Assembly (NCBI RefSeq): GCF_055900595.2
Contig: NZ_CM148325.1
DNA length: 64,000 nt
Reading direction: 5' to 3' (one strand)
The translations under genes and the position numbers were made by a program. The notes below the pieces were generated by a model, which did no database searches, was not told the origin of the DNA, and worked only from the letters and a program-made list of their open reading frames with translations. Below, piece by piece: positions 43,249-60,122 of this stretch (position 1 is its first letter; every line of letters starts with the position of its first letter).

Positions 43249-43503
43249 CTATGCGGGGATCTTGGTACCAGAGCGCTTTGGGACTTTGGCCAGATTTTTC
43301 TGTACCGCGTTATCAATATGGTGATGGTTATTTTCCTGCCGTGCTTTGAGCCAGCGTTCCACTTCCTCTTTGTCCCACGCGACGGCGCGCTTCGTTAGCG
43401 CAAAACGTTTGGGAAACAGGCCTTTTTGCTCCAACGCATAAATCGTACTTTCAGAGAGTGGCACCATCTGTAAAAGCACGTTTTTTCTAATGGCAATTTT
43501 CAT
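43249..43503 (-). CDS. AlpA/Vis-family phage transcriptional regulator (excisionase-like)
   Basis: 84-aa ORF resembling AlpA (..LSESTIYALEQKGLFPKRFALTKRAVAWDKEEVERWL..); adjacent to and divergent from int. Confidence 0.75.
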   Translation of the reverse strand: MKIAIRKNVLLQMVPLSESTIYALEQKGLFPKRFALTKRAVAWDKEEVERWLKARQENNHHHIDNAVQKNLAKVPKRSGTKIPA

Positions 43504-44314
43504 TGTTTATTCCTTTAATCCAAAGGCACTCAGTTCTGATAACAGATCCTTTTTTACCAGCAGCGGCAGATTGCTTTGTCTCTTTACGCCAGCCGGTTAG
43601 CAAATCGTTATACATTTCGGTGTCGTAGCCGCTGATAACCACGCTTCCTTGTAACCGGGTGACGGTCTCCAGTAAGCGCAGGTGGGCACCATCGTCCATT
43701 TCGTGGCGATAATATTTGTTAGTCAGATTACGGGTGCTATGAACATACGGCGGATCGACAAAATGCAGCGTGTCGGCGGCGTCATGATCCAGAATACACT
43801 GGATGGCATCGCGGTTTTCCACCAGAACCCCTTCAAAACGCTGACCAACGGCGGCCAGATTATCGGGCATACGGCTCCAGATGTGTTGGGCCGTTCCACT
43901 GGCGCGTTTAGTGTCCAGCCGAAAGCCGGTAGTGCCTTTAGTTGCCCCGGCAGAACCGAAGCCCATCGTGGCGCGAATCACTAAACGCCTTGCCTGTTCA
44001 ACAGAATTTTTCCCATAGCGATAGGCCGAAATAAACTCGGTGCGGGAATAGGGTGTCAGGCTGCAGGCTTCAACCAGTCTTTCGCGCAGTTGTGGGGTAC
44101 GAAGAACGGCGAACAGGTTAACGACGTCGCCATCCAGATCGTTGTAAACCTCGGCGTAGCTACGTGGTTTTCTGAGCAGTACGCTGGCTGCACCGCCGAA
44201 GGGTTCCACATAGCATCTGTGGGCCGGAAAGTGGCTAATGATCCACGGAGCTAGTCGCCACTTGCCGCCGTGGTAGCGGATTGCAGGGTGCTTAATCATC
44301 CAGTTTTTCTCCAC
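43487..44314 (-). CDS. Dam-family DNA N6-adenine methyltransferase (paralog 1)
   Basis: 275-aa ORF with N-terminal YHGGK..RCYVEPFGGAAS AdoMet motif and catalytic DPPY motif. Confidence 0.8.
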   Translation of the reverse strand: MEKNWMIKHPAIRYHGGKWRLAPWIISHFPAHRCYVEPFGGAASVLLRKPRSYAEVYNDLDGDVVNLFAVLRTPQLRERLVEACSLTPYSRTEFISAYRYGKNSVEQARRLVIRATMGFGSAGATKGTTGFRLDTKRASGTAQHIWSRMPDNLAAVGQRFEGVLVENRDAIQCILDHDAADTLHFVDPPYVHSTRNLTNKYYRHEMDDGAHLRLLETVTRLQGSVVISGYDTEMYNDLLTGWRKETKQSAAAGKKGSVIRTECLWIKGINNENCH

Positions 44315-44891
44315 GCCGTTCTACGTTCAGGTGTCGCCACTGCACCGCAATCCGTTTCATCACCGCATTCCCCTCTGGGATCACCTCCTGCGGCTCCTTC
44401 ATCAACATGACCCGCCCCCGAATAACGATCAGCGCTTGTTCCAGCAGGCCATAGTCCAGATAACAGAGATCGGGAATATCCAGTTGCCACACATAGCCAT
44501 TCCATGCTGAAAGTAGCACTTGCGCGGCGGCGCGTCCGCCGCTGGTTTCTGTGAGCGCGATTTTGGCAAGTGTATTGACGGCTGCGCCATATTCCTCTGG
44601 CGTGACGCGGAGTTTCTGCTGGCTGTTATCTTCTTTTGCCAGCGTTAATAATCCAATCGGGTGTAATACGCCCAGCTCTTCCATCTTTTCTTTCAATGTT
44701 GCAGCTGTATTCCATCCAATTCTGAATTTGCGCTGCAGGCGGCTGATACTGATAATGCCTTCCGCCTCGGCCAGTTCGACCGCTTTGGGATAGAGTTCAT
44801 TGAGCCGATATTCGTAATCAGCGAAGGGCGCACCGCTATTCTCTGGCAGGCCAGAGAGTGTTTGTGAATTATTTCCAGAGGATTTCATCAT
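44292..44891 (-). CDS. protein with FtsK-gamma-like winged-helix domain
   Basis: 199-aa ORF; segment ISISRLQRKFRIGWNTAATLKEKMEELGVL closely parallels the FtsK gamma domain ([29 protein letters not shown]); overlaps downstream Dam gene by 23 bp. Confidence 0.55.
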   Translation of the reverse strand: MMKSSGNNSQTLSGLPENSGAPFADYEYRLNELYPKAVELAEAEGIISISRLQRKFRIGWNTAATLKEKMEELGVLHPIGLLTLAKEDNSQQKLRVTPEEYGAAVNTLAKIALTETSGGRAAAQVLLSAWNGYVWQLDIPDLCYLDYGLLEQALIVIRGRVMLMKEPQEVIPEGNAVMKRIAVQWRHLNVERRGEKLDD

Positions 44892-44901
44892 AATTTCCTT
44901 T

Positions 44902-47559
44902 TTAACGTTGAAAAACCCAACACTTCACCGTCGCCGGGCGGCGCGGTGCGGCTGGGTAACGGCGGTTAAATTCAGCGTTGATGCCGCTGTTAACCGTTCT
45001 GACTTCAATAAACTTGTGGGTACGGCTGGTTTTTAGCACTCGCTTCAAATCGCTGATCGGCGGGATCTGCTGGCGGCGCTCGGTAGCCAGTTGAATAAAG
45101 TGGTTAAGGTTAACGGCGATAAGCTGTTCATCGCGCGAGTGGTTGAGCTGTGGTTCGTCGTCGCCATCGAGGAAGTCGAAAATATCCCAGAACTCCTGCA
45201 CCAGAGGATGGTCGGCGCTGATGGCCTGTTGGCGCTCCAGACTGAGGCGGATAAACATTTCTCTGGTCGCCTGTAGCTGCTCTTCCGTGACCGGAATAAC
45301 CAGCGCCAGCGCGTCGAGCAGCGCCATAAGCTGGGCGTGGTTTTTAATGATGCGGATATGGCGAATATCTGGGTGGGAGTGAAGTTGCTGCTCGTATAGC
45401 GGGATCTGACGGTTAACGCACTCCAGCACGGCCTGTTCCGCCAGCGCTGCCTTCAGCATAAAGCCGGAAAGCTGTTCTACCGGCAGGCGTTCGAGCTGCT
45501 CGGCAGCGACCTTGGTCTGAGTATTCTGGCCGCTGCGGTCGGTGTACAGGTGAATAATACGTTCCAGCACCGGGTTAGAGGCGCTAACATCGGCGTTTTG
45601 CGCAATCACAATCGCGCCCCGGAACGGCGGTTCATAGGTCTCGTTGCCGCTGTTACGCAGACCGCGAGAACGCACCGACCGCCCGTTATAGGCGGTTTTC
45701 AGCTCTTCCCAATCAAAGCCACGCTGCTTTGCCCCCTCCTGATTACGGTCACCCTCGATCAGCACCACCGGCATATTTGCTACCTGCGCAAAGTTGCGCG
45801 CGCGGGCGGCCAGCGTTGATTTAGACGGATCGAAACCTTCATAGTCGCGTCGGCCCAACAGTTTCCAGAGGAACTCTATCAGCGTGGTTTTACCGCTGCC
45901 GGGTTCGCCAACGATTTCCAGAAATGGAAAGCTCTTGTGCTTGTCGCGGATCTGTTCGGCAAACATCGTCCCAAACCAGTACGCCAGCGCCACAAACCCC
46001 TTTGCGCCAAACGCCTGCCAGAGTAGCTGGGGCCACTGGCTGTCCATCTGTTTTAAATTGTCGTTCAGCGTCAGGCTGACCGACTGGTTCAGGCTTTTAA
46101 GGCTAAGTTTGCCCATGTCGAAGAAGTCTTCTTCGTTGAGTGTGTACAGCCGACCATCGCGAACGGCCAGATCGTTGAACACGTAAGCGCGGTATTCTTT
46201 GCTGTAGCCGATAAAATCAGTGGTCTGGACAGTTTTGATTTTGGGAAGCTGCTTGAGCAGCAACTTATCTAACTGCTGACTGGTGCCGGTGAAGATGCCG
46301 CCCTGCGCGATATGCAGCAGGCGCTTTTTGAATTCTGAGCCGCTGGAAAGTTGGGAGCCGGTGAAGGTGTTTTTTATCGGTGGAGTGTCGTCGGGGAAGT
46401 TAATGCGAAAGTAATACCAGCTTTCGTCGGTAATGGTGTTGGCCTGATAGTAGAGGGCGGTCGGGTAGCAGTTGGCTATCTCAACAACGGCGGCTGACTC
46501 CTGTAGCGCTTTATGTTTGGCTTCTTCTTCGTCCAGCTCCTCTTTGCCGTTATACATCACGTTATCAAAGGCACGCATATAACGGTCAATATCCAGCTTG
46601 AACCAGTACAGGCGGCTGTCGAACTCGAAGTGAAACTCTTTGCGTTCGGTACGCTCATGCATCAGTAATGCTTTGGCATTCGGATTGGGAGCGATCAACA
46701 GTGAACCGTAGTAACGATATTTTTTAATCAGATCCGGGTTTAGCCGATCGCGCTGGTGCAAATCGTTCCAGTCCAGCTTGGTGCGGGAATAGGGCGTTTG
46801 TGCGGCGGTGGAAAGCCAGCCGTCGTCGCGGCTGCGTTTTACCCAGCGGCGGGTGTAATTCATGCCCGCTTTGTCGTTATCCAGCGCCCAGACCAGTAAA
46901 GGACGCTTTTTATCCACGAACAGCGCGGCCAGTTGGCTTAACGCCTGCGCCGGATAGTTGTTACAGGTCATCAGGGAAACGGCGGCAATGCCGTGGTGGT
47001 GCAGGGCGATAGCGTCAAAAATGCCCTCAACCAGCCAGATCTCCTGCTGTTCTTCCAGCTTAAGCGTTGGCAATTGCCACCATAGCCCGCTGTAAGCGCC
47101 GTGAAAATTGGCTTTGCGATCGCCGAAACGCTGTGGGCGGTCAACGATCCGCTCCCACCACACGCCGTCAGCCAGCGGGAAACGCACAGTGGCCGAGCCG
47201 AGATCGCGCCGTGCGTCATAGTAGTTCTCTTGAGCGTAACAGTTACGGAGCAGCGAAAGGTCAAAGCCGCGCATCTCGCGCAGGTAGGCATCGGCGGCGG
47301 CCTGTGGGTTTTCCGGGGTTGGGGGATATCTGTCTGACCAGCTTTCAAATAGATCCGGGTACACCTCTTTGATATGGATTTCGGCATTGCATTTATTCAG
47401 GCGACCGCAGCGCAGTACCCACGGGCTGATGGCGTAGGTGTACAGCTCTTTTTTCTGGCAGTCCGGGCAGACGCCCTGCCGCAGCCAGTCGCCCTGTTCT
47501 TTAAAGGAAAAATCGGCTAGCAGTCGCCGCGTAATTTCCTGATGAAGTTGTGGTTGCAT
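44902..47559 (-). CDS. phage/plasmid primase-helicase (zinc-binding + TOPRIM-like primase fused to P-loop NTPase; P4 alpha-like)
   Basis: 885-aa ORF; N-terminal CPDC..C..C zinc motif, EGIFDAIAL TOPRIM-like segment, Walker A GEPGSGKTT in the C-terminal half. Confidence 0.75.
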   Translation of the reverse strand: MQPQLHQEITRRLLADFSFKEQGDWLRQGVCPDCQKKELYTYAISPWVLRCGRLNKCNAEIHIKEVYPDLFESWSDRYPPTPENPQAAADAYLREMRGFDLSLLRNCYAQENYYDARRDLGSATVRFPLADGVWWERIVDRPQRFGDRKANFHGAYSGLWWQLPTLKLEEQQEIWLVEGIFDAIALHHHGIAAVSLMTCNNYPAQALSQLAALFVDKKRPLLVWALDNDKAGMNYTRRWVKRSRDDGWLSTAAQTPYSRTKLDWNDLHQRDRLNPDLIKKYRYYGSLLIAPNPNAKALLMHERTERKEFHFEFDSRLYWFKLDIDRYMRAFDNVMYNGKEELDEEEAKHKALQESAAVVEIANCYPTALYYQANTITDESWYYFRINFPDDTPPIKNTFTGSQLSSGSEFKKRLLHIAQGGIFTGTSQQLDKLLLKQLPKIKTVQTTDFIGYSKEYRAYVFNDLAVRDGRLYTLNEEDFFDMGKLSLKSLNQSVSLTLNDNLKQMDSQWPQLLWQAFGAKGFVALAYWFGTMFAEQIRDKHKSFPFLEIVGEPGSGKTTLIEFLWKLLGRRDYEGFDPSKSTLAARARNFAQVANMPVVLIEGDRNQEGAKQRGFDWEELKTAYNGRSVRSRGLRNSGNETYEPPFRGAIVIAQNADVSASNPVLERIIHLYTDRSGQNTQTKVAAEQLERLPVEQLSGFMLKAALAEQAVLECVNRQIPLYEQQLHSHPDIRHIRIIKNHAQLMALLDALALVIPVTEEQLQATREMFIRLSLERQQAISADHPLVQEFWDIFDFLDGDDEPQLNHSRDEQLIAVNLNHFIQLATERRQQIPPISDLKRVLKTSRTHKFIEVRTVNSGINAEFNRRYPAAPRRPATVKCWVFQR

Positions 47560-47647
47560 TGCCAGTACCTTTATTCAGGTAATACTTACCCGTCGCATAG
47601 ACACGTTGTTTATGCGTTGTGGTTGTGAGTCTTTTATTTACTGAGCG

Positions 47648-47896
47648 TTACGCGATTTTCTGCTTTTGCAGAAATTGCCCGCGTGTGGATAGCGGTATGT
47701 GTATCTTAGGATTCGGGCAACCGCTGGGTACTACCGTTCCCATCACGGTCTCCATCGCGATAAATGAAAACGAACAGTTAACGTTCTTGCACTGGTAATA
47801 GAGCTTACGTACCAGCGGTGACATATATTCGCTGCTGCGAATTATCGCCTTACCGTCGCAGTGTGGGCATTTCATCATGTCCGATCTCCTTACCAC
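47648..47896 (-). CDS. ogr: Ogr/Delta-family zinc-finger late-gene transcriptional activator
   Basis: 82-aa ORF (likely start MKCPHCDG at 47875) with CPHC..22 aa..CKNVNC zinc-finger spacing typical of P2 Ogr / P4 Delta. Confidence 0.8.
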   Translation of the reverse strand: MVRRSDMMKCPHCDGKAIIRSSEYMSPLVRKLYYQCKNVNCSFSFIAMETVMGTVVPSGCPNPKIHIPLSTRGQFLQKQKIA

Positions 47897-48201
47897 TTTT
47901 AACTAACTGAAACACTAACGCTTTTCGTTAACGGACTGACGAAATAGTGTGATGCCGTTCAAAAAAATGATTCTTGCCATGCTGGACATCGAACGGTTCT
48001 GCTCCAGCGCTAATGCTTACAGTTCCGCGATTTCAGCGGGGAGCAGACGCATTGCCACCGGTTTGTTCGACATCACCCCGCGGGGTGCTCGTGAGCGTAA
48101 GACGTTCTCATTTGTTTTCATGGTGGTATATTGTGGTTATTAACATTACACAATCTATAATTCCCTCAATTGAGTGAATTGTCAATGGTAATTATATCCA
48201 A

Positions 48202-48540
48202 ATGAAAGAATTTGGCATCCGTTTGAAGGAAGAACGTATCCGACTTGGCCTTGATCAAGACGGCTTTGGACAACTTGGGGGCGTGAAGAAAAACGCACAA
48301 AGTAACTATGAGAATGGACTGCGCAAGCCGGACAGTGACTATCTTGCTGGCATAGCGGCAGCGGGAGTTGATGTTCTGTATGTTCTAACAGGCAACCGCA
48401 CGCCTGTGGCTACGTTGTCCAGTAAAGAGAGTGTGTTGGTGGAGAACTATCGTTCTGCTACGCCAGAACACCAGTCCACCCTTGACACGGTTAGCGCTGC
48501 GCTTGCGCAACCGGGAGTAGGGAAAGCAGCTAAGGGATAA
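48202..48540 (+). CDS. XRE-family helix-turn-helix transcriptional regulator (Cro/CI-like)
   Basis: 112-aa ORF with classic HTH_XRE N-terminus (FGIRLKEERIRLGLDQDGFGQLGGVKKNAQSNYENGLRKPDSDYLAGIA); divergent from ogr. Confidence 0.8.
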   Translation: MKEFGIRLKEERIRLGLDQDGFGQLGGVKKNAQSNYENGLRKPDSDYLAGIAAAGVDVLYVLTGNRTPVATLSSKESVLVENYRSATPEHQSTLDTVSAALAQPGVGKAAKG

Positions 48541-48580
48541 CGAGTAGAATGAATTTGGTTATTGTCTGTATGGAGGCAAA

Positions 48581-49153
48581 ATGAAGTTGAATAATCTGGT
48601 TGCTCTTTACAGGAACATGACAGAGCAAAAATTGGATAGGGTTAAATTCCCATACAGACACAATAATTTACATTTTGATGTATTTTTCTTTATTGATGGA
48701 AAACCGTTTGAGCTTCTTTTCGGAGCATTAGGCGCTAATCTTTGCTTTCGTCTAAAAGTCGAGAAGGGATTCGTCATAAATCCTAATCTGGGAAGTGAGA
48801 CTTATAAAGAATTATGCAAGGCGCTAGGTTTGAAATATGACCCTGCCAATCCATTTAGAACAAGTAAGTTTTTTGAAGATTTTGATGGGAAAATCCCTAC
48901 ATCGGTTACTGTTAAGAATAAGGCAAAATATACTGATATTGCTGTGCATGTCAGGGATGTTGAAGAAGCAGACAGAATATATTTCTGTGGATGGAAAAAC
49001 AACAATGAAGAAAAGAGTCATGTTACTGAAGATAATTTAAAGAAAACGAAAGAGTTTTTAGGGTATCAGGCTTTTCTTGTTTGTAAGGAAAAGAATATTA
49101 GCAGTAGATGGACTGATTTAGAAAATAAAGCAAAAGATTTTTATTTACCATAG
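48581..49153 (+). CDS. hypothetical protein (cargo gene 1, no recognisable domain)
   Basis: 190-aa ORF with strong SD GGAGG; A+T-rich, Lys/Asn-rich; first gene of compact operon. Confidence 0.6.
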   Translation: MKLNNLVALYRNMTEQKLDRVKFPYRHNNLHFDVFFFIDGKPFELLFGALGANLCFRLKVEKGFVINPNLGSETYKELCKALGLKYDPANPFRTSKFFEDFDGKIPTSVTVKNKAKYTDIAVHVRDVEEADRIYFCGWKNNNEEKSHVTEDNLKKTKEFLGYQAFLVCKEKNISSRWTDLENKAKDFYLP

Positions 49154-49167
49154 GATTGTGAGGTTAT

Positions 49168-50316
49168 ATGTCTGATATTTCATTAGGGTGCGTGGTTGTT
49201 CATAGGTTGATAAAAGAGCAACATAAAGATTTCGATCACTCAAAACCATATAGTCGCCGTGATACGGTTCTTGACCGAAATAATGAAATCGTAATTAAAC
49301 TAGTGTCCAGTATAGCCGCATTGTATGGTAAAAAATCTAATAGCTCGCATTATGGTATATTTAATTTAGATGAAACACGCAGGGGGCCTTTTCCAGCGGA
49401 ATTTGATAAATATCGGAATGATACATCCAAGAAGTTAGACGATGAATTGTTTATAGGATTATCAAAAAATGTTATGCATCAGTTATATATTGAGGCAAAG
49501 GATCGACCTGCTGCATCAGGAGGATTACTTCTTTTTGCTGATTATATCAGTAAATCCGTGCGTTACTTTCTTATTGCAATGATTAAGCAAAAGGAAGGTA
49601 TAGTTATTAGTGATAAATTAGAGCCAAAGGAGTTAGAGCATCTTGATCTGGCAAAACTAAACCAGGCGGCACGAATAAACTATGATTTGTATGATAAATA
49701 TATTTCCGCTGATGAGAATGAAAGACAGGATGTTAATTATTTAAGTTTTGTTAGTCCCAGTTCTAACCAGACAACTTCAGGGTATTTCATTACTGCCTTA
49801 GGTTGTGATAAAGGTAATACATCAACTAAAGCTACGAGTAATTTAATTAATGAATCTTTTAACTTCTTCAGAAATCATCAAGAATTAAAGGATAATGCCC
49901 GTAAATTTAAAAATGAAATTATTGAGTATTTATTCGATTGTTCTGAAAATAACATTTCAGCTAAGCTCTCTGTTGTTAGTGAGATGGCGGCGAAGCATAT
50001 GGTTAATTTAGAAGATGACATTAAAGATAAATTGTCAGAAGAATTATATGCTCATTTGAATAGTGAAAGTATTCGTGTGCCTGTGGAATTTAGGGTAAGC
50101 AAATCAGTAGTTAAGAAAAACAGAAATATTAAATATACAAGTGATAATGTTAATTTTGAGTTTAAATCTAGTTTACTAGGCAATACTCTTGATAATGAGA
50201 TATGCTATAATAAGAAAACTGGACATTTAACTTTTACTCGGATTACTCCTGAGAAAAAAAGTGAAATAGCTCAATTGCTTGATGAGTTAATAAAAGAAAG
50301 AAATAGCGAAAAATAA
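49168..50316 (+). CDS. NdpA/YejK-like nucleoid-associated protein homolog (cargo gene 2)
   Basis: 382-aa ORF, SD GTGAGG; collinear similarity to E. coli YejK recalled from memory (VVVHRLIKEQH vs IALHQLIKRDE; GGLLLFADY..VRYFLIAMI vs GGxVLFCHY..VEYLLVAVL). Confidence 0.55.
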   Translation: MSDISLGCVVVHRLIKEQHKDFDHSKPYSRRDTVLDRNNEIVIKLVSSIAALYGKKSNSSHYGIFNLDETRRGPFPAEFDKYRNDTSKKLDDELFIGLSKNVMHQLYIEAKDRPAASGGLLLFADYISKSVRYFLIAMIKQKEGIVISDKLEPKELEHLDLAKLNQAARINYDLYDKYISADENERQDVNYLSFVSPSSNQTTSGYFITALGCDKGNTSTKATSNLINESFNFFRNHQELKDNARKFKNEIIEYLFDCSENNISAKLSVVSEMAAKHMVNLEDDIKDKLSEELYAHLNSESIRVPVEFRVSKSVVKKNRNIKYTSDNVNFEFKSSLLGNTLDNEICYNKKTGHLTFTRITPEKKSEIAQLLDELIKERNSEK

Positions 50317-50318
50317 GG

Positions 50319-50957
50319 TTGCTTAATATGTCATGTTTTGAAACGGTTGTTGAGCTTTTCAGATATGTAGGGCGTCCTAAATTTGATGCTATTAATAATC
50401 GTTTTTCAGCAACTATTTCTTATGATGCTCATATATATGAACTCTTAGTTTCTTTGCAACCTCATACAGCGTGGGGAGAAATTGAAGAGATTGTCATTGA
50501 TGATGTGGATATAGATGTTGATGATAGCCTTCCCGCTAAAGGAACATCAATAACACTGACAATCTCTATATCAACTGGAGCTAGTGAGTCATTTTTTATC
50601 GATATTAAAGATCTAATTCAAAAGTCTCCGATGTTAAATAGAGGTATTTTAAGAAAGTCTTTTTACTTGGTTGAGGAAGATTTTTATTTTAATGAAGGAA
50701 TGGTTGAGGGATTAGCAAAAATACCAGAACTATCTGTTTTAAAGAATCTTTGTGATTTTATTTTATGTCTATCAAAAGTTGCACACTACAGCAATAGTAA
50801 AAGTGATGATGTATGCCATAAGTTAGTTTTCTTGAAAAATACTAATGCTAAGTCATTACCTTTAATTATTGAAACTAATGTTGATTATTCACTTCTTTTA
50901 ACAGGTATTAAGGATTTAAAAATCATCGAATCTTTTTCTGATGAAAAAAAGCTATAA
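50319..50957 (+). CDS. hypothetical protein (cargo gene 3)
   Basis: 212-aa ORF beginning 2 bp after the preceding stop; acidic, no recognisable domain. Confidence 0.55.
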   Translation: MLNMSCFETVVELFRYVGRPKFDAINNRFSATISYDAHIYELLVSLQPHTAWGEIEEIVIDDVDIDVDDSLPAKGTSITLTISISTGASESFFIDIKDLIQKSPMLNRGILRKSFYLVEEDFYFNEGMVEGLAKIPELSVLKNLCDFILCLSKVAHYSNSKSDDVCHKLVFLKNTNAKSLPLIIETNVDYSLLLTGIKDLKIIESFSDEKKL

Positions 50958-51001
50958 CGGATGATAATTATTTTGAGCGAAAAGGGATTTTCATTAATAC
51001 G

Positions 51002-51583
51002 GTGGTCGATTTTCTTGAATCAATCGATGTAAAGAAACAGTTTCATTTTTTATTCTGTGAGTGGGATGAATTTCTAAAACTATACCATAATAACCTCGGT
51101 GTATATCTTAGTGGTTTTTCATTTCATAAAGTAAGAAAGGAAGTGGCAGAGGCAGAAGCTAATTTAGCTGAGCGTTTTTCAAAAATAATGTCAGACATGA
51201 TAGCTAAGCTTTTAGGTATTCCTGTTTCTTTGGTTGCTACTTTTGGCATGATAAAATTAAATACCCTGCCGGAAATGTTAGTGGTTTTTTTAGGTGTATT
51301 GCTCACGTCGATAATTATGTTTTTTATTGTAAGAAGTCAATACACACAGTTTAGGATGATTTGTGATGCTAAAGATATTATATTTTCCCCATTAGTGAAA
51401 AAATCTGTAGGTTATACAGAAGATTTGAAAAAATTAGTATGCAATGCAAAGGATAATTTAGACAAAAATCAGGTCATGTTAAATCGTTACCTTCTTTTCT
51501 TTCAATGCTTATGCTGGATTCCGACAGCCTTAGGTGGTGGAATGATCTTAATGGCTATTATGGTTCATTTAGGATTACTATAA
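51002..51583 (+). CDS. predicted membrane protein (cargo gene 4)
   Basis: 193-aa ORF with apparent GTG start; hydrophobic segments (IPVSLVATFGMIKL.., MLVVFLGVLLTSIIMFFIV, ..CWIPTALGGGMILMAIMVHLGLL); 3' end overlaps convergent gene D by 6 bp; start codon uncertain. Confidence 0.45.
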   Translation: MVDFLESIDVKKQFHFLFCEWDEFLKLYHNNLGVYLSGFSFHKVRKEVAEAEANLAERFSKIMSDMIAKLLGIPVSLVATFGMIKLNTLPEMLVVFLGVLLTSIIMFFIVRSQYTQFRMICDAKDIIFSPLVKKSVGYTEDLKKLVCNAKDNLDKNQVMLNRYLLFFQCLCWIPTALGGGMILMAIMVHLGLL

Positions 51584-52678
51584 ACTTAATTCCATTTCTA
51601 ATGCGGTGACATAACCAGTACCGCCATCCAACGTATGCACGCACCGCGTAATCACCCACGCGGTGCCATCAATTTCCGCCTTAAACCCCTTCACCTGCAG
51701 CGGTAATTCCGGGAACAAATCGGGCCGTCCACGCGCAAGATTCAGGCTGAACGTTGCCGCGCCGCGCTGTAGCTGCTCCCACGCGCTTTTTGCCGCTCTG
51801 TAGGCGTTATTTTTGTTGGCATAGGTGTGGCGCAGCACCTTGATATTTCCCTCTTCGCCAACCATCACGTTATCAGCATTGAATGAGGCGTCTGACGGCG
51901 GAGATTCTGTTGGTTGCGTTTGTGGACGGTTTTTCCGTGTCTTGCGCTTCATGTCAGTGGACTGCTTTTTTGCCTGCCGTGTATCCAGCCAGTAGGCCGT
52001 CACACCGGTATACGCCTCCCTGTCCGCGATGCTGAACCGGTGGCTGTCGCCGTCCTCGCGGGTAATGGTTGCGACCGGCAGCGGTTTGCCGCTGGCACTT
52101 TTACCGGAACCTGTCGGCATTAGCAGCAGAGCATCATTTTTCACGCAGGCGATAGCGCCGTGCAGTTGCGCCAGCCGGGTCAGGAAGGAGGCATCGGATT
52201 CGTTAGTCTGGTCAACGTGCTCAATGGCGATCCCAGCCAGCTCGCCGCTGACGGTTGATTCCAGCTTATGACGCGCCGCCACGGTTTGCACAATCGCGCC
52301 CAGCGTCGCATCATGGTAGCTCTGTTCCCGTTTAACGTTCAGCGAATCGCGGAAATCGGCGCTGCGGGCGCGGAGGCTGAGTACGTCCGGTGCGCCGCTG
52401 TGCTCCAGTTCGTCCACTGTGAAGACATTCTGGTGCATCACGCCGTCACCCTTCCAGCCTAGAGAAACCGTTAGCTTTTCGCCCTTTGCCGGAAACGCCA
52501 GCAGGCCGTCGCTGTCGTCCAGTTCGAGCTGCAGTTCGTCGGCCTCAAAGCCCCGGTTGTCGGTGATACGCAGGCTGATTAAGCGGTTGTCCAGATTCCG
52601 CGTAATGTCCTTACCGTTCAGCACCACGCTGTACTCCGGCTGCGGCTGGGCGTTTAAGAGTGCGTTTAACATCGTCAT
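51578..52678 (-). CDS. P2 gpD-like tail protein (late control D)
   Basis: 366-aa ORF, MTMLNALLNAQPQPEYSVVLNGKDITRNLDNRLISLRITDN.. typical of gpD; position after U. Confidence 0.85.
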   Translation of the reverse strand: MTMLNALLNAQPQPEYSVVLNGKDITRNLDNRLISLRITDNRGFEADELQLELDDSDGLLAFPAKGEKLTVSLGWKGDGVMHQNVFTVDELEHSGAPDVLSLRARSADFRDSLNVKREQSYHDATLGAIVQTVAARHKLESTVSGELAGIAIEHVDQTNESDASFLTRLAQLHGAIACVKNDALLLMPTGSGKSASGKPLPVATITREDGDSHRFSIADREAYTGVTAYWLDTRQAKKQSTDMKRKTRKNRPQTQPTESPPSDASFNADNVMVGEEGNIKVLRHTYANKNNAYRAAKSAWEQLQRGAATFSLNLARGRPDLFPELPLQVKGFKAEIDGTAWVITRCVHTLDGGTGYVTALEMELSL

Positions 52679-53103
52679 AGTCCGTCTACCATCGTGATGA
52701 TGTCGCCCAGCAAGCCACCCAGCTTCGGCGGATCGACACGTTTTAACGCCAGCGTAAACTCAATGCGCCGGGCCGCACCGTCGCGAAAAAAGACGCTCCG
52801 GGTGACGTTCAGACTCTCAATCACAAACCAGCCATGCAGCGATCCGGTGCCTTCAATCAGCGGCCAAGCCATCCCCTGATCGGCCATCTTTCGCAGGAAA
52901 AACAGGGTAAATCGCCCGCCGGTCAGTTCCGGCAACAGCACGCCGTTTAGCGTAATGGTTTCGTCACCCACGCCGATAAACTGGCTGGCCGGACGTAGCC
53001 CCACGCGGGAACTGGCAGGATGCCGCCACGCTACGGCGTGCTGCATATCCTGATAGGGCAGGGTTTTCAGGCTGAAGACGAACAGCCCCAGTACCATCAT
53101 CAT
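52675..53103 (-). CDS. P2 gpU-like tail protein
   Basis: ORF 52675..53211; probable start at MMMVLGLFVF (53103) overlapping end of T; 4-bp overlap with D start. Confidence 0.75.
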   Translation of the reverse strand: MMMVLGLFVFSLKTLPYQDMQHAVAWRHPASSRVGLRPASQFIGVGDETITLNGVLLPELTGGRFTLFFLRKMADQGMAWPLIEGTGSLHGWFVIESLNVTRSVFFRDGAARRIEFTLALKRVDPPKLGGLLGDIITMVDGL

Positions 53104-53113
53104 AAGAGCCTCC

Positions 53114-55963
53114 TTAATCAATATCGCGCAGGCTGCTGCGGGTTCTGGCGGCATTCTGCCTTTCGCGCTTGTCCAGTTCCTGCGCCACCAGTTTCGCCAG
53201 TTGTTGTTCATTCATGCCGGGAGCAGCGTGGATGTGAATAGTGACAGGCCCGCCGCTGGCTGCCGGTACAGAAAGGGATGCTGGCGCGAGCGGGGCGCGA
53301 TTATCCGGCAGGGCGGCGATAGGGGGCATGGCGACAGCGGCGGCGCTGAGCGTCAGCCCGGCACCGGCGGCGATTAACTGCTTCGAGAGTTGCCCTACGC
53401 TGGCCAGCGCCGTTTGCGTGTTGCCCTCAATCCCGACCGCCAGCCCGTCCACGGTATAGCGGCCCATTTCGGCGAACACCCGCGACGGTGAATGAATACC
53501 GAGCTTGTCCTTAAACCAGTTGGAAATATTGCTGCCCAGATCCAGCACGCCCTGTTTAATCGCTTCCCATTTGGCAAAGATCCCCTGTTTCAGCCCTTCC
53601 ATGATATTGCCGCCGATCTCGGTAAAGCGGGTGGACAGGTTACTGAAACTGTTCAGAACGTTATCCCAGACTGTGGTAAACACCGTGGACAGGTTCCAGT
53701 TGGTGAAAAAAGCATTGATGGCATTCAGGGCAGTGCTGACGGTGGTTTTAATTCCCTCCCAGATACCGGTGGCGGTAGTGGTAATGCCCGTCCAGATTTG
53801 CCCCAGAAATGCCACCACGCTGTTCCACGCCTCAGCGGTACTGGCTTTGATAGTATCCCAGTGCTGGTAAATCAGGCCGGGAAGCGTCCAGTTCAGCAGG
53901 ATATTCACCAGCCCGTTCCAGCAGCCGGAGAGAAACGTTTTAATCCCTTCCCAGACGGCGCTGGTTGTGGCTTTTACACTGTTCCACGCATCGCTGCATA
54001 CCTGCTTAAAACTATTCCAGAGCGCGGCGAACTTCGGCCCCAGCCAGTCCCAGTTACTCCAGATCCAGATGGCGGCACCGGCGATCAGCGCAATCACCGC
54101 CAGAATCGGGTTAGCCATCATTGCGCGGCCCAGCCAAATTACCGCTTTTCCCGCGCCTTTAAAGGCATTCGCCAGCAGCCCCAGCGCGCTGCCGCCCTTA
54201 ATACCGAGCACCGACAGGCTGAGTTTTAGCGCCGCCATCGGGCCGAGGATACCGGCCAGCGTCAGGGATATGCCTCCGAGCGCCACGGCGAACGCGCCGA
54301 TCGCCATGCCGATTTTCACCAGCGTGGCGGTTAATTGTGGGTTGGCCTTCATCCATGCGCCGATGGACTGTAAAACGCCGGTTATGCGTTGGGTAATACT
54401 GCGCAACGGGCTGTCAACTGATTCGAACATCTCAATACCGAGATCTTCCCACGCCGAGTCAAGATTCTGGAGATCACCCTTCATATTATCGGCCATCGTT
54501 TTGGCAACTTTGCCAGCGGTACCGAGGGAGGCTTTCACCTGTTCGGCATAGGCTTCAATACGCTGCGACGGATCGAGTGACGCCTGTTTGTCGAGCAGTT
54601 CCATCATCGCGGAAGAGGCTTCCACACCGAAAATATCCTTGATGTAGGACATTTTCTTCACGTTGCCGACGCCGCCGATCCCTTGCTTCTCAAACGCGGC
54701 GGAGATTTCTGCCAGTAGCTGCGGCATCTCTTTCATTTTTCCGGTGCTGTCCGCCACCGAGACTTTCAGGTCTTCCAGCGCGGCGGCGGCTTTTTTCGGC
54801 TGTGATGCCAGCCGCAACAGCGCCATACGTAAGGATGTACCTGCCTGCGCTCCCTGAATCCCCACGTTACCCAGCATCCCGACCATCGCTGACATGGTTT
54901 CAAAGTCCTGCCCCGCAGCCTGTGCAGCCGGGCCGACGTATTTCATGGTTTCACCCAGCATCTGCAGGTCGGTATTAGACGTAGTGAACGTGAAGGTGAG
55001 CGCGTCAGCCATGCGTTGCATCTGGTCTGCCGGGATTTTATAGGCGCTCTGAATATTGGAGGCGATATCGGAAACCTGAGCAAGCTGCGTGTCCATCCCC
55101 GCCGCTTTCGCCAGATCCAACATGTGCGGCATCGCCTTTTCGATTTTATCTGGCGTGTAGCCCGCCATTGCCAGAAAACCCTGCCCCTGCGCCACATCGT
55201 TGGCGGTAAAGCTGGTTGATGCGCCTAAATCTCGCGATTGCGTTCGCAGCCGTTTCAGTTCATCAGAGTTTTTATCGGTGCGTGTTAACGCCTGTACGCG
55301 CGACATGCCCACGTCGAAATCGTAGCCGGGCATCATTACCCGCGCGCTGCCGTAAAGCATACCCACGCCGGTGGCCGTCGTGGTTGCGCCGAATCCGGCC
55401 AGTTTGTTGCGGGCGTCCATTGCTCCTGCGTAGCTATTTTTTGCTGCGTTCATCCGCTGCTGCTGCCGGTTTAGCCGTTCCAGTCGCCTGCGCTGTTCCT
55501 CCATGCTACGGTTAGCACTCTCCAGTCGTTGCCGTAGTTCACTCTGGCGCTGGCTGAGATTACGGGTATCGATACCAGCGTTGCGCAGTACGGTGCGGCT
55601 ATGCTGCTGGGCCTGAGTAAGCTGACCATGCCGTTCTTTAAGTCGCCGCGCCTCCTGCTGAGCACGTTCAAACTCCCGACGCATCGCAGCCGTGGGCGCA
55701 GTGCTGCTTTGCATTGCCGTGGCCAGCGCCCGGACGCGATCCTGCGCGCTTTTAAGCTGATTGCCGGTGACGGCGACATCGCGCGCCAGCTTGCGGTAGC
55801 CATCGATTTGTCCGGCCTGTTTGTTCAGGTCTTTGACCTGCTGCTGCGCCGCTTTCAGTGCTCTGGCGGTGTCGCTGCTGCTTTGCGTGACGGCTTTTAG
55901 CGGACGGGTGATTTTATCTACGGCGCTGAGTAGTACCTGTAAACGAAGGTTTTGTGTGCTCAT
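53114..55963 (-). CDS. tail tape measure protein (gpT-like)
   Basis: 949-aa ORF with coiled-coil N-terminus and Ala/Gly-rich hydrophobic middle; located between E/E' and U. Confidence 0.85.
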   Translation of the reverse strand: MSTQNLRLQVLLSAVDKITRPLKAVTQSSSDTARALKAAQQQVKDLNKQAGQIDGYRKLARDVAVTGNQLKSAQDRVRALATAMQSSTAPTAAMRREFERAQQEARRLKERHGQLTQAQQHSRTVLRNAGIDTRNLSQRQSELRQRLESANRSMEEQRRRLERLNRQQQRMNAAKNSYAGAMDARNKLAGFGATTTATGVGMLYGSARVMMPGYDFDVGMSRVQALTRTDKNSDELKRLRTQSRDLGASTSFTANDVAQGQGFLAMAGYTPDKIEKAMPHMLDLAKAAGMDTQLAQVSDIASNIQSAYKIPADQMQRMADALTFTFTTSNTDLQMLGETMKYVGPAAQAAGQDFETMSAMVGMLGNVGIQGAQAGTSLRMALLRLASQPKKAAAALEDLKVSVADSTGKMKEMPQLLAEISAAFEKQGIGGVGNVKKMSYIKDIFGVEASSAMMELLDKQASLDPSQRIEAYAEQVKASLGTAGKVAKTMADNMKGDLQNLDSAWEDLGIEMFESVDSPLRSITQRITGVLQSIGAWMKANPQLTATLVKIGMAIGAFAVALGGISLTLAGILGPMAALKLSLSVLGIKGGSALGLLANAFKGAGKAVIWLGRAMMANPILAVIALIAGAAIWIWSNWDWLGPKFAALWNSFKQVCSDAWNSVKATTSAVWEGIKTFLSGCWNGLVNILLNWTLPGLIYQHWDTIKASTAEAWNSVVAFLGQIWTGITTTATGIWEGIKTTVSTALNAINAFFTNWNLSTVFTTVWDNVLNSFSNLSTRFTEIGGNIMEGLKQGIFAKWEAIKQGVLDLGSNISNWFKDKLGIHSPSRVFAEMGRYTVDGLAVGIEGNTQTALASVGQLSKQLIAAGAGLTLSAAAVAMPPIAALPDNRAPLAPASLSVPAASGGPVTIHIHAAPGMNEQQLAKLVAQELDKRERQNAARTRSSLRDID

Positions 55964-56084
55964 GATTCAACACCGCTGCGCTGGCGGGCCTGCTCCCGCC
56001 AGTAAAGGGTTTCGCCAAGGGTTAATGCGTCCATCGCGGATAGTGGCCAATGGAAGATGACGGCTATGTCGCCTTGAGCCTCCT

Positions 56085-56381
56085 CTATGCGTCCGGGGTA
56101 TCCGTTGCTTCCGGCGAGGTCTGCGGCAAAAAACCGACAAGCGCCGTACCGAAAGCCGTCAGGTCGATAAAATCCAGTTGCGCCACCTCATGCTTATTCA
56201 GCGGCGGTGCGGTGATGCGCGGTAGAACGCTGGTGAGTGCATCTACGTTAAGGCTTAACAGCTCCACCAGACTGACACCGCGCAGGTCGCCGCCCAGTGG
56301 TTTACGGATCTGGAACTCGACAAATTCGGTTTCGCCGCGTTTCAGGGGAGTATTCAGGGTAACGGTTTTACGTTCGCTCAT
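56085..56381 (-). CDS. P2 gpE-like tail assembly chaperone
   Basis: 98-aa ORF between FII and T with slippery site near its 3' end. Confidence 0.8.
   Translation of the reverse strand: MSERKTVTLNTPLKRGETEFVEFQIRKPLGGDLRGVSLVELLSLNVDALTSVLPRITAPPLNKHEVAQLDFIDLTAFGTALVGFLPQTSPEATDTPDA
56106..56112 (-). other. candidate -1 programmed frameshift slippery site (TTTTTTG) for E+E' synthesis
   Basis: Minus-strand heptamer T-TTT-TTG nine codons before the gpE stop; the -1 frame stays open across the 121-bp gap toward T, as in P2 E/E+E'. Confidence 0.6.
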
Positions 56382-56390
56382 GGTTCATCC

Positions 56391-56906
56391 TTACAGGCCA
56401 ATGGCGCGACGTGCGCCAGCCAGACGGTCTTTGCCGTCGATATTTTCAATAAAGTTCACGGTGTCGATTTCGACGATGGTTTCACCGTTGACGCTCTCTT
56501 TGTAATAGGTACAAAGGGTGCTGATTTTGGTCGCGGAGTTCTCGCCCTGCTTGTATTCGCCGCGATCCAGCTCTTTGTGGCGACCACGCACCACGATTTC
56601 CACCGCGTCGTACTCTTCGCTGTCTTCACGCTGGATAGCGCCGGAGAATCGCAGCATCACGCCGCTGATCTTCGTCCAGCCGATCTGCCGCAGCGCCAGC
56701 AGCTCATAGCCGCCGATTGACCATTCCACGCTGAGCGCCTCGTCATCCAGTCCCAGATCGACATGCGCCGCGCCGTTCATGCCGCCGCCGCGATAGGCTT
56801 CCAGCTTGCGCGTCAGCTTTGCCGGGGTGAAGGACTCCACCTGTGCCAGATAGATATCGCCCTCGTTAAACAGGTTGAGGTATTTCAGTTTGCTGGGTAG
56901 TGCCAT
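56391..56906 (-). CDS. tail tube protein (gpFII-like)
   Basis: 171-aa ORF MALPSKLKYLNLFNEG.. with typical FII C-terminus (..IDTVNFIENIDGKDRL..). Confidence 0.88.
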   Translation of the reverse strand: MALPSKLKYLNLFNEGDIYLAQVESFTPAKLTRKLEAYRGGGMNGAAHVDLGLDDEALSVEWSIGGYELLALRQIGWTKISGVMLRFSGAIQREDSEEYDAVEIVVRGRHKELDRGEYKQGENSATKISTLCTYYKESVNGETIVEIDTVNFIENIDGKDRLAGARRAIGL

Positions 56907-56920
56907 GGTGCGTTCTCCTG

Positions 56921-58099
56921 TTACACAGTGGTGGCGATGGATTCAGCCAGATTGACCAGATAGCGGTCAGTGATGCGCTGGCGGAACATCAGGTTTTCCA
57001 GCGGCGGCACCGGGGTGTAGTCGTAGTCGATATACGCTTTACCCGCTTTCAGGATGTCCGGCGTGTTGGCGGCGGGATCGAACCATGCGGAGCCGTCGAC
57101 GATGTAGCCGTTGCCTTTCAGTTCGCGGAATTTGGCGTTCACGCCTTCGATAATGTCGCGGAACAGAGAAGCGTGTTGCGGTTTATCTATCGCCCAGAAG
57201 TGGGCGTCGGCGATGGTATCCGCCAGCACCTGCGCGGTGCGGGTGTAGTTCTCAAAGGCAAACAGCGGATCGGTGCTGCAGGTGCGCGATCCCCAGAAGC
57301 GATAGCCGGCGTTGCAAATCAGCGTGGTGACGTCGTGGCTGTTGAGGTAATCCGAATCGGTGGCGGTGGACTGCAGATCCCAGAATACGCTGCGGGAAAT
57401 GCCGGTCACGCCGTTGACGTCAACGTTGGACAGCGTTTTATGCCAGCCGGTTTCTTCATCAATTTTTGCACGCAGGCCCACGGCGCGGGCGGTGGCGTAT
57501 AGGGTACGTTCGGCGGCAGCCTGTGTATCAAAGCCGACAAAATCCGGCCAGATAATCATCGCCTCTCGCGCACCTAGCTGATCGCGATACAGCACCGCCT
57601 CTTCTTTGGTCTGCGCGCCGAACGCCGACAGATAGCTGAAGGCGCGAAGCTGTTGTGAAATGCTGACCAGTTCGGTGGCGATGGGCAGAGAATCCAGCCC
57701 TGGTACCGCCAGAATGCGCGGTTTTATTTTCAGTTTGGTTTGCGAGTCCAGTAGCGCCTTCATGCCGGTGTATTTCCCGGCTGGCGTGCTGCCGCCGATG
57801 ATATTGGCGGTGGTTTCGGCGGCGGAGTCACCTTCGGCTACGCGCACGGCGACCACCACCGGCTGCGTCTGGTCGGCGATGGCATCCAGAGAGTGTGCCA
57901 GCGTACCGCTATCACCGGCTTTACCCAGCGCAGATCGCACGTCGGTTAACAGTACTGGGGTATCAAGGGGAAAGGTTTTTTCATCGGCATCTGAACCGGT
58001 ACAGACAATGCCGATCACGGCAGTGGAAATGGTACGGATCGGGCGCACGCCTTCATTGATTTCAATAACGCGCGCGCCGTGGTGGTAGTCGGTTGCCAT
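56921..58099 (-). CDS. tail sheath protein (gpFI-like)
   Basis: ORF 56921..58186; probable start MATDYHHGARVIEINEG at 58099; C-terminal ..IDYDYTPVPPLENL.. sheath signature. Confidence 0.88.
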   Translation of the reverse strand: MATDYHHGARVIEINEGVRPIRTISTAVIGIVCTGSDADEKTFPLDTPVLLTDVRSALGKAGDSGTLAHSLDAIADQTQPVVVAVRVAEGDSAAETTANIIGGSTPAGKYTGMKALLDSQTKLKIKPRILAVPGLDSLPIATELVSISQQLRAFSYLSAFGAQTKEEAVLYRDQLGAREAMIIWPDFVGFDTQAAAERTLYATARAVGLRAKIDEETGWHKTLSNVDVNGVTGISRSVFWDLQSTATDSDYLNSHDVTTLICNAGYRFWGSRTCSTDPLFAFENYTRTAQVLADTIADAHFWAIDKPQHASLFRDIIEGVNAKFRELKGNGYIVDGSAWFDPAANTPDILKAGKAYIDYDYTPVPPLENLMFRQRITDRYLVNLAESIATTV

Positions 58100-58204
58100 G
58101 AGGCGAGCCTCCATCAGGTCAATAAATGACGATGGTGGCACAGAGCGAAAAGGGCGGTGACGGCTTCCACTTGTAACCACTGGCACTACAAGCAGAAGCG
58201 GTTT

Positions 58205-58963
58205 TTAATTCAGGATAATCAGTTCTGATGTGGTGCTGGCTGGCTTTCCACCTACGGTATAGCGAATCCCTACCGTTGAGAATGTCAGGCCGTGGAAGAT
58301 ATCGCGCATTTCCGGGATGTCGTTAACCGAGATAATCATCCGGCCCTGCATGGTGCGCGCCAGCTCTGCCATACGCTGGTACTGCTCAAGGCCAAATGGT
58401 ACGCCGTAGCCTTCGGTTTTCCAGTATGGTGGGTCGCAGTAGAACAGGGTATGCGGGCGGTCATAGCGGCGAATACAGTCGGCCCAGTCCAGATTTTCAA
58501 TGCAGACGCGCGCCAGCCGCAGATGGGCGGCGGATAAATCCTCTTCCATACGCAGCAGGTTCAGGCGCGGCGGTGAGGTGGTGGCGGTACCGAACGTGCG
58601 ACTTTCCACTTTGCCGCCGAATGCCAGCTTTTGCAGATAGTAGAAGCGCGCCGCGCGCTGGATATCGGTCAGCGTTTCTTCCGGGGTGATCTGGAGCCAG
58701 CGGTACATTTCGCGGCTGACCAGCGACCATTTAAACTGGCGGACAAACTCTTCTAAATGGTGCTGAAGTACGCGGTAGAGGTTGGTAACGTCACCGTTGA
58801 TATCGTTCAGCACCTCGGCCTGTGCGGGCTGTTTCATAAAGAACAACGCTGCCGCCCCGCAGAACGGTTCAACGTAGCAGCGGTGTTTGGGAAACAGTGG
58901 CAGAATGTGTTTTGCCAGCCTGCGCTTACCGCCGATCCACGGAATAACGGGTAACGTATTCAA
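58205..58963 (-). CDS. Dam-family DNA N6-adenine methyltransferase (paralog 2), moron between G and FI
   Basis: 252-aa ORF with IGGK..RCYVEPFCGAAA and DPPY motifs; start overlaps upstream stop (ATGA). Confidence 0.8.
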   Translation of the reverse strand: MNTLPVIPWIGGKRRLAKHILPLFPKHRCYVEPFCGAAALFFMKQPAQAEVLNDINGDVTNLYRVLQHHLEEFVRQFKWSLVSREMYRWLQITPEETLTDIQRAARFYYLQKLAFGGKVESRTFGTATTSPPRLNLLRMEEDLSAAHLRLARVCIENLDWADCIRRYDRPHTLFYCDPPYWKTEGYGVPFGLEQYQRMAELARTMQGRMIISVNDIPEMRDIFHGLTFSTVGIRYTVGGKPASTTSELIILN

Positions 58964-59418
58964 ATTGTCAATTTTCCAGACCGACTGCTGACCAACGCAT
59001 ACAGCAGATTAGGAGACCAGCGCCAACTATCGCGCAGGTGCAGAAATTCGGCGCAGAACTCGCTGCAAAACAGGCGTTCCTGTTTACCCTGACTGAGTAA
59101 CACAAAACCCATGGCGCCCAGCCAGTCGTAACCTTTATCGTCGTGCTGACGAAAAAAGGTTTCCAGTGCCAGCGGATCGGCGTTGATCGGGAGTAAATCC
59201 CATTTCTCAATCGGCAGCGGCATTCGTTTGCTGCGCACGCCTTTATCCCGTACCGATGATGAGTAACAGATAAACAGGCCATCCGGCAGGCGTTCGACCA
59301 GTTCGCAGTGAGAGTAAGGGCCGCGCGTGACCTGTCGCGTCAACCAGTCGGAGAGCCGGGCAAGGCTGAAAAAGCGTTCAGCCCGGCCACGGTAGAACGC
59401 CATGTAAACCTGACTCAT
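58960..59418 (-). CDS. hypothetical protein (moron gene at Z/fun position)
   Basis: ORF 58960..59427; start likely MSQVYMAF at 59418 giving an ATGA overlap with the G stop; Cys/His-containing, no recognised domain. Confidence 0.55.
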   Translation of the reverse strand: MSQVYMAFYRGRAERFFSLARLSDWLTRQVTRGPYSHCELVERLPDGLFICYSSSVRDKGVRSKRMPLPIEKWDLLPINADPLALETFFRQHDDKGYDWLGAMGFVLLSQGKQERLFCSEFCAEFLHLRDSWRWSPNLLYALVSSRSGKLTI

Positions 59419-60122
59419 GGTTGCCATCCTGATGAGTAGTCGTAACCCATAACCGCCTGCACCTCCGTCAACGCTTCAACGGCGGCAATATGCTGCTGGG
59501 CAGCGGCGAACAGGCGCATATCGTGCGCCATTGTTTCGGTTTCAAACCGGGCGGCGATCTCGTTGGTTAGTTCAATCAGGTTGTGATTTTTGGTCTGCCA
59601 CATTAAGCCTGCCGGTATTTGTTTAGCCACGCCCATTTTGGTGAGCGAGAGCTGCTGGATGCGGCTGTTAGCGTCGCTGTGGAAATGGTGATTATCGATG
59701 ATGATGTAGTCAGCGGTGATTCGATCGCGATACTGCTTTATTTCTGCCACCTTTGCCTGTCGGGCTTTTTCGATATCGGGCTGCCAGCGTTTGCCGTCCC
59801 AACGGACAAAGGCGTTATCGGGCTTCAGCAGAGTGACGTTATCCGGCAATGGCCCCAGATGATGAAGCTGTACCTCACTGCCCGCATCGGTATCAAACGC
59901 GGTTTTACCGCGATGATCTTCTACCGCAAGCCATGTTTCTCCGTTGAATGTCAGGGCAAAGCCGCTCTGGCATTCGGGCGGTTCGATAGTGGTACAGCAT
60001 TCCGGTAAGCCGGTGTTGGGGGCGATATAGGCGTCGCTGACGCCGATAAATTCCTGAGTATCTGCCGCGTAGTTAAAGATGCGCAGGGTTTGCGGTTCGT
60101 CGGAAAATGCGAATGTGCTCAT
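59415..60122 (-). CDS. tail fiber assembly protein (gpG-like)
   Basis: 235-aa ORF immediately downstream of tail fiber H with ATGA overlap. Confidence 0.75.

Follow-up and report, generated by a model that had tools for sequence, protein, structure and literature searches.

An Escherichia coli prophage related to phage P2 encodes two orphan D12-class N6-adenine DNA methyltransferases, here called MT1 and MT2. Judged by their alignments, these belong to two separate old subfamilies that were brought together in one phage and are not the product of a duplication within it. The DNA analysed is a stretch of 64,000 nucleotides (nt) from contig NZ_CM148325.1 (assembly GCF_055900595.2), referred to below as the window. 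The left end of the prophage is its integrase gene int (42031) beside guaA, and the prophage extends past position 64000. The guaB-guaA region is 100% identical to several complete E. coli genomes, and a prophage of ~96% identity occupies the same site in three complete E. coli genomes (GMF054, L725 and CEC15). MT1 and MT2 are the only D12 genes in the window, and both open reading frames (ORFs) do lie in one prophage, as an earlier note made from the letters alone had claimed. The role that is favoured here, with moderate confidence, is methylation of the DNA of the phage in the course of lytic growth at two different targets, by which the progeny would escape restriction.

Two methyltransferase subfamilies in one prophage

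MT1 matches PF02086 (MethyltransfD12) with E = 2.1e-19 over model positions 1-240 of 253, and MT2 with E = 7.1e-29 over positions 1-241 of 253. Both proteins also match phrog_56 (E = 2e-97 for MT2) and are full length relative to their homologues, with 95-100% coverage. GGK, EPFxGAA and DPPY are invariant or near-invariant columns in an alignment of 33 sequences that includes E. coli Dam; this bears out the S-adenosylmethionine (AdoMet) and DPPY motifs that had been pointed out in both ORFs. EPF(G/C)GAA is at residue 32 in both proteins, and DPPY is at residue 182 in MT1 and 177 in MT2. The two proteins keep the motif order of the alpha group, which is an N-terminal AdoMet motif (FxGxG), a recognition domain and a C-terminal DPPY.

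Both proteins have a predicted Dam fold. The AlphaFold models have predicted local distance difference test (pLDDT) values of 81 for MT1 and 82 for MT2, and predicted template modelling (pTM) scores of 0.82-0.83. The top Foldseek matches for both models are E. coli Dam, 7M6B, DpnM and T4 Dam (E = 1e-13 to 1e-16), and the best PDB match of each model is E. coli Dam. E. coli Dam, T4 Dam and DpnM share with MT1 and MT2 the Pfam family, the motif order, a central recognition domain with a hairpin and the predicted fold (TM-score 0.65-0.78), but the sequence identity is only 18-26%. The score of MT1 against TIGR00571 (Dam) is 64 bits and that of MT2 is 105.6 bits, so that neither reaches the cut-off of 114.85 bits. 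The E. coli Dam equivalog NF008152 has a cut-off of 441 bits, which is likewise not reached by MT1 (36.9 bits) or MT2 (62.3 bits). The label "Dam-family" given to both ORFs therefore holds in the broad D12 sense of PF02086, but not in the sense of the curated TIGR00571 Dam family. No cognate nuclease or PADLOC defence match adjoins either gene, and only generic methylase models were matched. Since there is no adjacent nuclease, MT1 and MT2 are classed as orphan methyltransferases.

BLASTP aligns MT1 and MT2 with 32% identity over 233 amino acids (aa) (E = 1e-29). The identity is 53% in residues 1-68 and 23.5% in residues 69-252, which agrees with the earlier description of closely related N-termini and divergent C-terminal halves. 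The relatives of the two proteins are found in different phages. MT1 is 76% identical to the methylases of Hafnia phage Meifeng and the Yersinia vB_YenM phages. MT2 is 72% identical to the methylases encoded by Klebsiella phage KP12 and by PhiKM, a BcepMu-like phage of E. coli, and 66-67% identical over its full length to those of VP882, Pseudomonas phage B3 (ORF48) and phiE125 (gp27), which are late-region or mom-like cargo of temperate phages. When aligned jointly, the members of the two subfamilies fall into cleanly separated blocks.

The earlier note had called the pair a duplication, a claim that does not stand against a mutual identity of 32% and identities of 66-94% to genes in other phages and prophages. 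Since each gene is far closer to methylases of unrelated phages than to the other, a duplication within the phage followed by C-terminal divergence into subfunctionalised paralogues is very improbable. The common Pfam family and PHROG and the similar N-termini would fit such an origin; however, the overall identity is low, MT2 resembles the methylases of Mu-like as well as BcepMu-like phages, VP882 and phiE125 (66-72%) and MT1 those of the Hafnia and Yersinia phages, and the similar N-terminal part is the AdoMet-binding region, which is common to E. coli Dam too. In a phage collection, 7/676 records matched by MT2 and 3/249 records matched by MT1 have two matching places. The counts suggest that two D12 genes in one sequenced phage are uncommon, although they are lower bounds.

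Placement and conservation of the pair

MT1 is present on the minus strand as the earlier note had described it, but with a different start. The ORF had been drawn as 43487..44314 with a GTG start at 44314, and the ATG at 44299 is preferred. This ATG is most likely the true start, giving a protein of 270 aa, since it yields the same form as the public protein P0001, has GGAG 9 nt upstream and overlaps the preceding stop. The MT2 ORF, also on the minus strand, was confirmed with the boundaries first given. It begins at a TTG that shares bases with the TGA closing the upstream ORF, and PGAP chose this start as well in E. coli GMF054. An E. coli protein cluster (P0121) agrees with the MT2 protein at 100% identity.

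The order of the genes suggests that one methylase would be made early, in the regulatory module, and the other late, in line with what had been proposed. The early leftward operon consists of the Ogr/Delta-like gene, the Toprim primase, the FtsK-gamma/DUF7673 gene, MT1 and the AlpA-like gene, in that order. The stop of the FtsK-gamma/DUF7673 gene overlaps the start of MT1, and the ATG of the AlpA-like gene falls within the final 17 nt of MT1. Since MT1 overlaps both of its neighbours, it would be made together with replication and excision functions. Yersinia phages likewise have their MT1-type genes in the early-left operon, beside xis/int. In the baseplate/tail-fibre operon MT2 comes last, after the tail fibre, the DUF4376 assembly protein and the phrog_1128 moron. 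This place agrees with the habit of its subfamily, whose members are found late or in mom-like positions, as behind the Com gene of phage B3. There is no Com-like ORF upstream of MT2; the upstream gene encodes the 155-aa phrog_1128 protein.

The gap between MT2 and the tail sheath gene is ~96% conserved between the window and an Edwardsiella prophage, whereas the backbone reaches ~83%. Within the gap, at 58190..58172, is the dyad TTGTAGTGCCAGTGGTTACAA, of the form TGT-N13-ACA. By analogy with the late promoters of P2, the dyad region is a candidate for an Ogr-dependent promoter from which the sheath operon would be transcribed late.

This Edwardsiella ictaluri prophage, also at guaA, has both methylases at the same two positions (81-85% DNA identity). 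The closest homologue of MT1 is from E. ictaluri (90% aa identity), and the order int / AlpA / MT1 / DUF7673 / primase / Ogr matches that of the window. The E. ictaluri orthologue of MT2 has 94% aa identity and lies directly upstream of the sheath gene. Since E. ictaluri keeps both orthologues in place, the two-methylase layout is common to prophages of different genera.

The ratio of nonsynonymous to synonymous substitution rates (dN/dS) between the window and Edwardsiella is 0.070 for MT2 and 0.083 for MT1. The comparison genes have values of 0.079 (sheath), 0.042 (tube), 0.060 (primase) and 0.054 (integrase). These ratios indicate that both methylases are under purifying selection. That one copy is a decaying pseudogene is scarcely credible: MT1 has been lost in three E. 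coli relatives and MT2 has a TTG start, but both genes are full length with dN/dS of 0.07-0.08, all of their catalytic motifs are intact and both models are confidently folded, so neither gene has decayed.

The three E. coli relatives GMF054, L725 and CEC15 have 366 bp in place of window positions 43508..44902 (L001 15488..15875). Their DUF7673 protein ends in ...ERHGENNENCH, compared with ...ERRGEKLDD in the window and in Edwardsiella, and MT1 of the window ends in ...IKGINNENCH. The shared NNENCH ending indicates that in the relatives the DUF7673 gene runs on, in frame, into the final six codons of MT1. This fusion is evidently what remains of a deletion that took out ~796 bp between two imperfect repeats, GGAGAAAA and GGAATAAA, and left the start of the AlpA-like gene intact. 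No MT1-like DNA was found in the 5,426 complete E. coli genomes searched.

Target specificity and possible roles

Each subfamily conserves its own recognition hairpin. The MT2-type hairpin is AFGGKV...TFGTATTSPPR and the MT1-type hairpin is MGFGSAGATKGTTGFRLDTKR, which is longer by a 6-residue insertion that also sets MT1 apart from E. coli Dam (YGYNGLCRYNLRGEFNVPFGR). Since the conserved hairpins differ and both genes are retained together under selection, MT1 and MT2 likely have different targets. Both hairpins have pLDDT below 50, so the models allow no inference of contacts.

In the role favoured here, MT1 would act on the phage DNA alongside replication and excision, and MT2 would be made late, while genomes are packaged. 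The two methylations together would protect the progeny from restriction in the next host. It is the timing of expression, the targets and the anti-restriction role that we infer in this proposal. By analogy, both methylases are probably silent in the lysogen; the prophage D12 orphan methylases of E. coli EC958 are transcriptionally inactive and have no assigned motif (PMC4659465). Further precedents for the proposal are the Com and methylase genes that phage KS5 has in the slot of MT2 (PMC3091744) and the SIR2 and DUF6602 cargo in the related slot of another E. coli P2-like prophage.

Several points weigh against this proposal. The timing of MT1 and MT2 expression is read from gene order alone, and the spacer of the candidate late promoter is 13 nt, compared with 12 nt in the late promoters of P2. 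MT1 is dispensable, in that the three E. coli relatives that are without it keep an otherwise similar prophage. GATC specificity of one or both enzymes would make them redundant with host Dam for the evasion of restriction. No close homologue with a measured target, and no target for either subfamily, was found in the literature searched, where phiE125 gp27, VP882 Dam, B3 ORF48, VHML Dam, Shewanella MuM16-1, and the Xenorhabdus and E. ictaluri methylomes were looked up.

One alternative is that both proteins are GATC-specific Dam enzymes that top up host Dam during rapid phage replication. Their role would then be to prevent nicking by MutH or to control replication or packaging, and not to give broader protection. 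The closest solved structures, judged by fold and by sequence, include E. coli Dam, T4 Dam and DpnM, which recognise GATC, and homologues such as B3 ORF48 are annotated as Dam. Phages whose hosts are Dam-positive, T2, T4 and P1 among them, also commonly carry a GATC-specific Dam gene. This alternative is nevertheless unlikely. Both proteins score below the TIGR00571 cut-off and far below that of NF008152. Neither subfamily conserves the residues by which E. coli Dam contacts GATC, taken from Dam-DNA structures to be K9, N120, L122, R124 and P134, with the reservation that within the hairpin the alignment is unsure. The position of K9 holds P in MT2 and R in MT1; R124 aligns, with the same reservation, with E120 of MT2, a position that is variable within the MT2 family. 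The D12 fold also includes enzymes that do not recognise GATC. PDB entry 7M6B, titled 'Mcbe1', is presumably the N4-cytosine enzyme M.CbeI from Caldicellulosiruptor bescii, whose target is GGCC; in that case a D12 fold by itself is no proof of GATC specificity. An assignment of 7M6B to M.BceJIV (GTWWAC) was rejected because of the entry title. Two distinct conserved hairpins, with both genes under selection in one phage, argue against full redundancy. The observed/expected ratio of GATC in the prophage is ~1.0, which does not favour the alternative and is itself uninformative.

It is also improbable that MT1 is an epigenetic regulator of the lysis-lysogeny or excision switch of the phage and that MT2 alone protects the DNA. 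In favour, MT1 is next to int and has translational coupling to the AlpA-like excisionase/regulator, and MT1-type genes have the same position beside xis/int in Yersinia phages. In Burkholderia cenocepacia phage H111-1, the prophage methylase gp51 is needed for lysogeny (bioRxiv 10.1101/2020.03.09.983379). However, the MT1 operon is divergent from the repressor and so is probably not expressed in the lysogen, and the E. coli relatives without MT1 keep an otherwise complete prophage. The control region 47560-48200 has no clustered candidate sites and contains two GATC only.

A further alternative, which is quite unlikely, is that MT2 is a Mom-like modifier of broad specificity that acts on adenines in very short or degenerate contexts. 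MT2-type genes are late, Com-controlled or at the right end in the Mu-like phages B3, MuM16-1, Bise and TJ1, and in the Burkholderia P2-like phage KS5 a Com gene and a methylase gene lie between the tail-fibre assembly and sheath genes (PMC3091744), which is the slot occupied by MT2. The tip of the MT2-type hairpin (KV-x-x-x) is variable within a family that is otherwise 72-80% conserved. Non-specific phage methylases with a Dam fold do exist: Hia5, Hin1523 and Nma1821 are orphan adenine methyltransferases of Mu-like prophages that have an anti-restriction role and are encoded late, in a place equivalent to that of mom (PMC3299994). However, MT2 has no Com gene upstream, and the remainder of its recognition domain is strongly conserved, as would be expected for a defined site. 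B3 ORF48 lies outside the closest 1000 relatives of Hia5 (Drozdz et al., PMC3299994). By this published statement a Hia5-type identity is less likely for MT2, to which B3 ORF48 is 66% identical, and the Hia5 enzymes would be a subfamily of their own.

There is also a slim chance that methylation by the early/late pair follows a conserved programme in two steps, with replicating genomes marked by MT1 and with MT2 as a late anti-restriction modifier of unusual or relaxed specificity. The MT2 subfamily is 72-80% conserved across phages of beta- and gamma-proteobacteria and is often in mom-like positions. If this reading is true, the MT2 subfamily would be a new class of broad-protection enzymes comparable to Hia5.

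Other phage methylases and neighbouring genes

It is already documented that one phage can have several methylases and that a methylase can lie in this slot of a P2-like phage; in this respect MT1 and MT2 are ordinary phage cargo. MT2 differs from B3 ORF48, which is preceded by a Com gene, in its P2-like tail-fibre operon, in having no Com gene and in its TTG start coupled to the upstream ORF. The Burkholderia P2-like phage KL3 has two methylases in one genome (PMC3091744). The enzymes of KS5 and KL3 are of the PF01555 (N4/N6) and C5-cytosine families and are not D12 enzymes like MT1 and MT2. In addition, KL3 gp47 belongs to an EcoRII-type restriction module, whereas MT1 and MT2 have no partner nuclease. 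Phage H111-1 resembles the present prophage in having two methylases (gp10 and gp51), there with apparently different roles; the role of gp51 was shown genetically. Haemophilus phage HP1 Dam (orf13), a GATC enzyme of a P2-like phage, was rejected as a characterised relative since neither MT1 nor MT2 has detectable similarity to it. The P2 hotspot paper of Rousset et al. was dropped as support for the slot between tail fibre and sheath, no mention of the slot having been found in a search of its text; the support comes from KS5 and from the E. coli relative that has SIR2 and DUF6602 genes there.

Table 1. Coordinates of the two methyltransferase genes and of the features around them in the window
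Feature	Position	Strand	Evidence or remark
guaA	40243..41820		flanks prophage left end
Tyrosine integrase, prophage left end	42031..43245	+	Phage_integrase, Arm-DNA-bind_3
AlpA-like excisionase/regulator	43249..43503	-	PF05930; phrog_66, phrog_2790
MT1, orphan D12-class N6-adenine DNA methyltransferase, 270 aa	43487..44299	-	PF02086, phrog_56, AlphaFold model
FtsK-gamma winged helix fused to DUF7673 protein	44292..44891	-	PF09397 + PF24720; phrog_6694, phrog_13700
Toprim primase, 885 aa, upstream of MT1	44902..47559	-	phrog_1139, 1262 bits; toprim annotation in relatives
Ogr/Delta-like zinc-finger late activator	47657..47878	-	tblastn with Edwardsiella PF04606 protein, 90% identity; GMF054 annotation
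Helix-turn-helix (HTH) repressor-like gene, divergent from early operon	48202..48540	+	phrog_8, phrog_4; HTH annotation in relatives
Tail sheath gene FI, ATG at 58099, downstream of MT2	56921..58099	-	94% identity to Edwardsiella sheath
MT2-sheath intergenic region, 105 bp	58100..58204	-	contains dyad TTGTAGTGCCAGTGGTTACAA
MT2, orphan D12-class N6-adenine DNA methyltransferase, 252 aa, TTG start	58205..58963	-	PF02086, phrog_56, model
Moron, 155 aa, overlaps MT2 start	58960..59427	-	phrog_1128; immediately upstream of MT2
Tail-fibre assembly-like protein (DUF4376), same late operon	59415..60122	-	phrog_1807, phrog_105; annotation

The early operon has several other features. The Ogr/Delta-like gene stands at its head. 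The prophage has the Toprim primase in place of a P2 gpA-type nickase, and this primase presumably resembles the alpha protein of P4. The FtsK-gamma/DUF7673 protein has 199 aa with the FtsK-gamma domain at the N-terminus, and its Edwardsiella and E. coli relatives consist of DUF7673 alone (123-125 aa). In the late operon, the phrog_1128 family is labelled 'enoyl-CoA hydratase/carnithine racemase-like', and the Edwardsiella prophage has only a 57-aa ORF at that place. The distal part of the tail-fibre gene and the assembly region (60283..61268) are divergent from the E. coli and Edwardsiella relatives, appearing as gaps in the blastn alignments, and protein H is 64% identical over its first 382 residues only. 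Host-range swapping would fit this divergence.

A low-GC (34%) cargo island at 48200..51580 lies between the repressor-like HTH gene and gpD. It encodes a DUF6037 protein, a nucleoid-associated protein (phrog_3767) and a phrog_5023 homologue, and PADLOC gave no match for any gene of the island. The Edwardsiella relative has DUF3644 and WYL genes in this slot, and the different cargo suggests a variable, possibly defence-related hotspot. The phrog_5023 homologue (50319..51583) is broken into two ORFs by an A7 run at about 50944..50950. GMF054 has A8 at this homopolymer and a single gene of 418 aa, and both halves are otherwise 100% identical. Possible explanations of the split are a sequencing error, phase variation or a pseudogene created by a frameshift. 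In the host flank, an adhesin-like ORF at 29044..37131 is very large (2695 aa). Its DNA is ~75% identical to the GMF054 counterpart, compared with ~95% for the adjacent xseA-guaBA region.

P1 and many other phages with several methylases are reportedly covered in a review by Murphy et al. of 2013. What is specific to the present locus is the combination of two D12 subfamilies, their early and late placement, the conservation between Escherichia and Edwardsiella, and a natural and precise deletion of MT1. The survival of phage or prophage DNA under restriction in a new host depends in part on orphan phage methylases, which also complicate the interpretation of methylomes. Since the prophage lineage exists both with the two methylases (this E. 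coli and E. ictaluri) and without MT1 (three E. coli), it offers a natural comparison, by which the contribution of each enzyme to host range can be tested directly.

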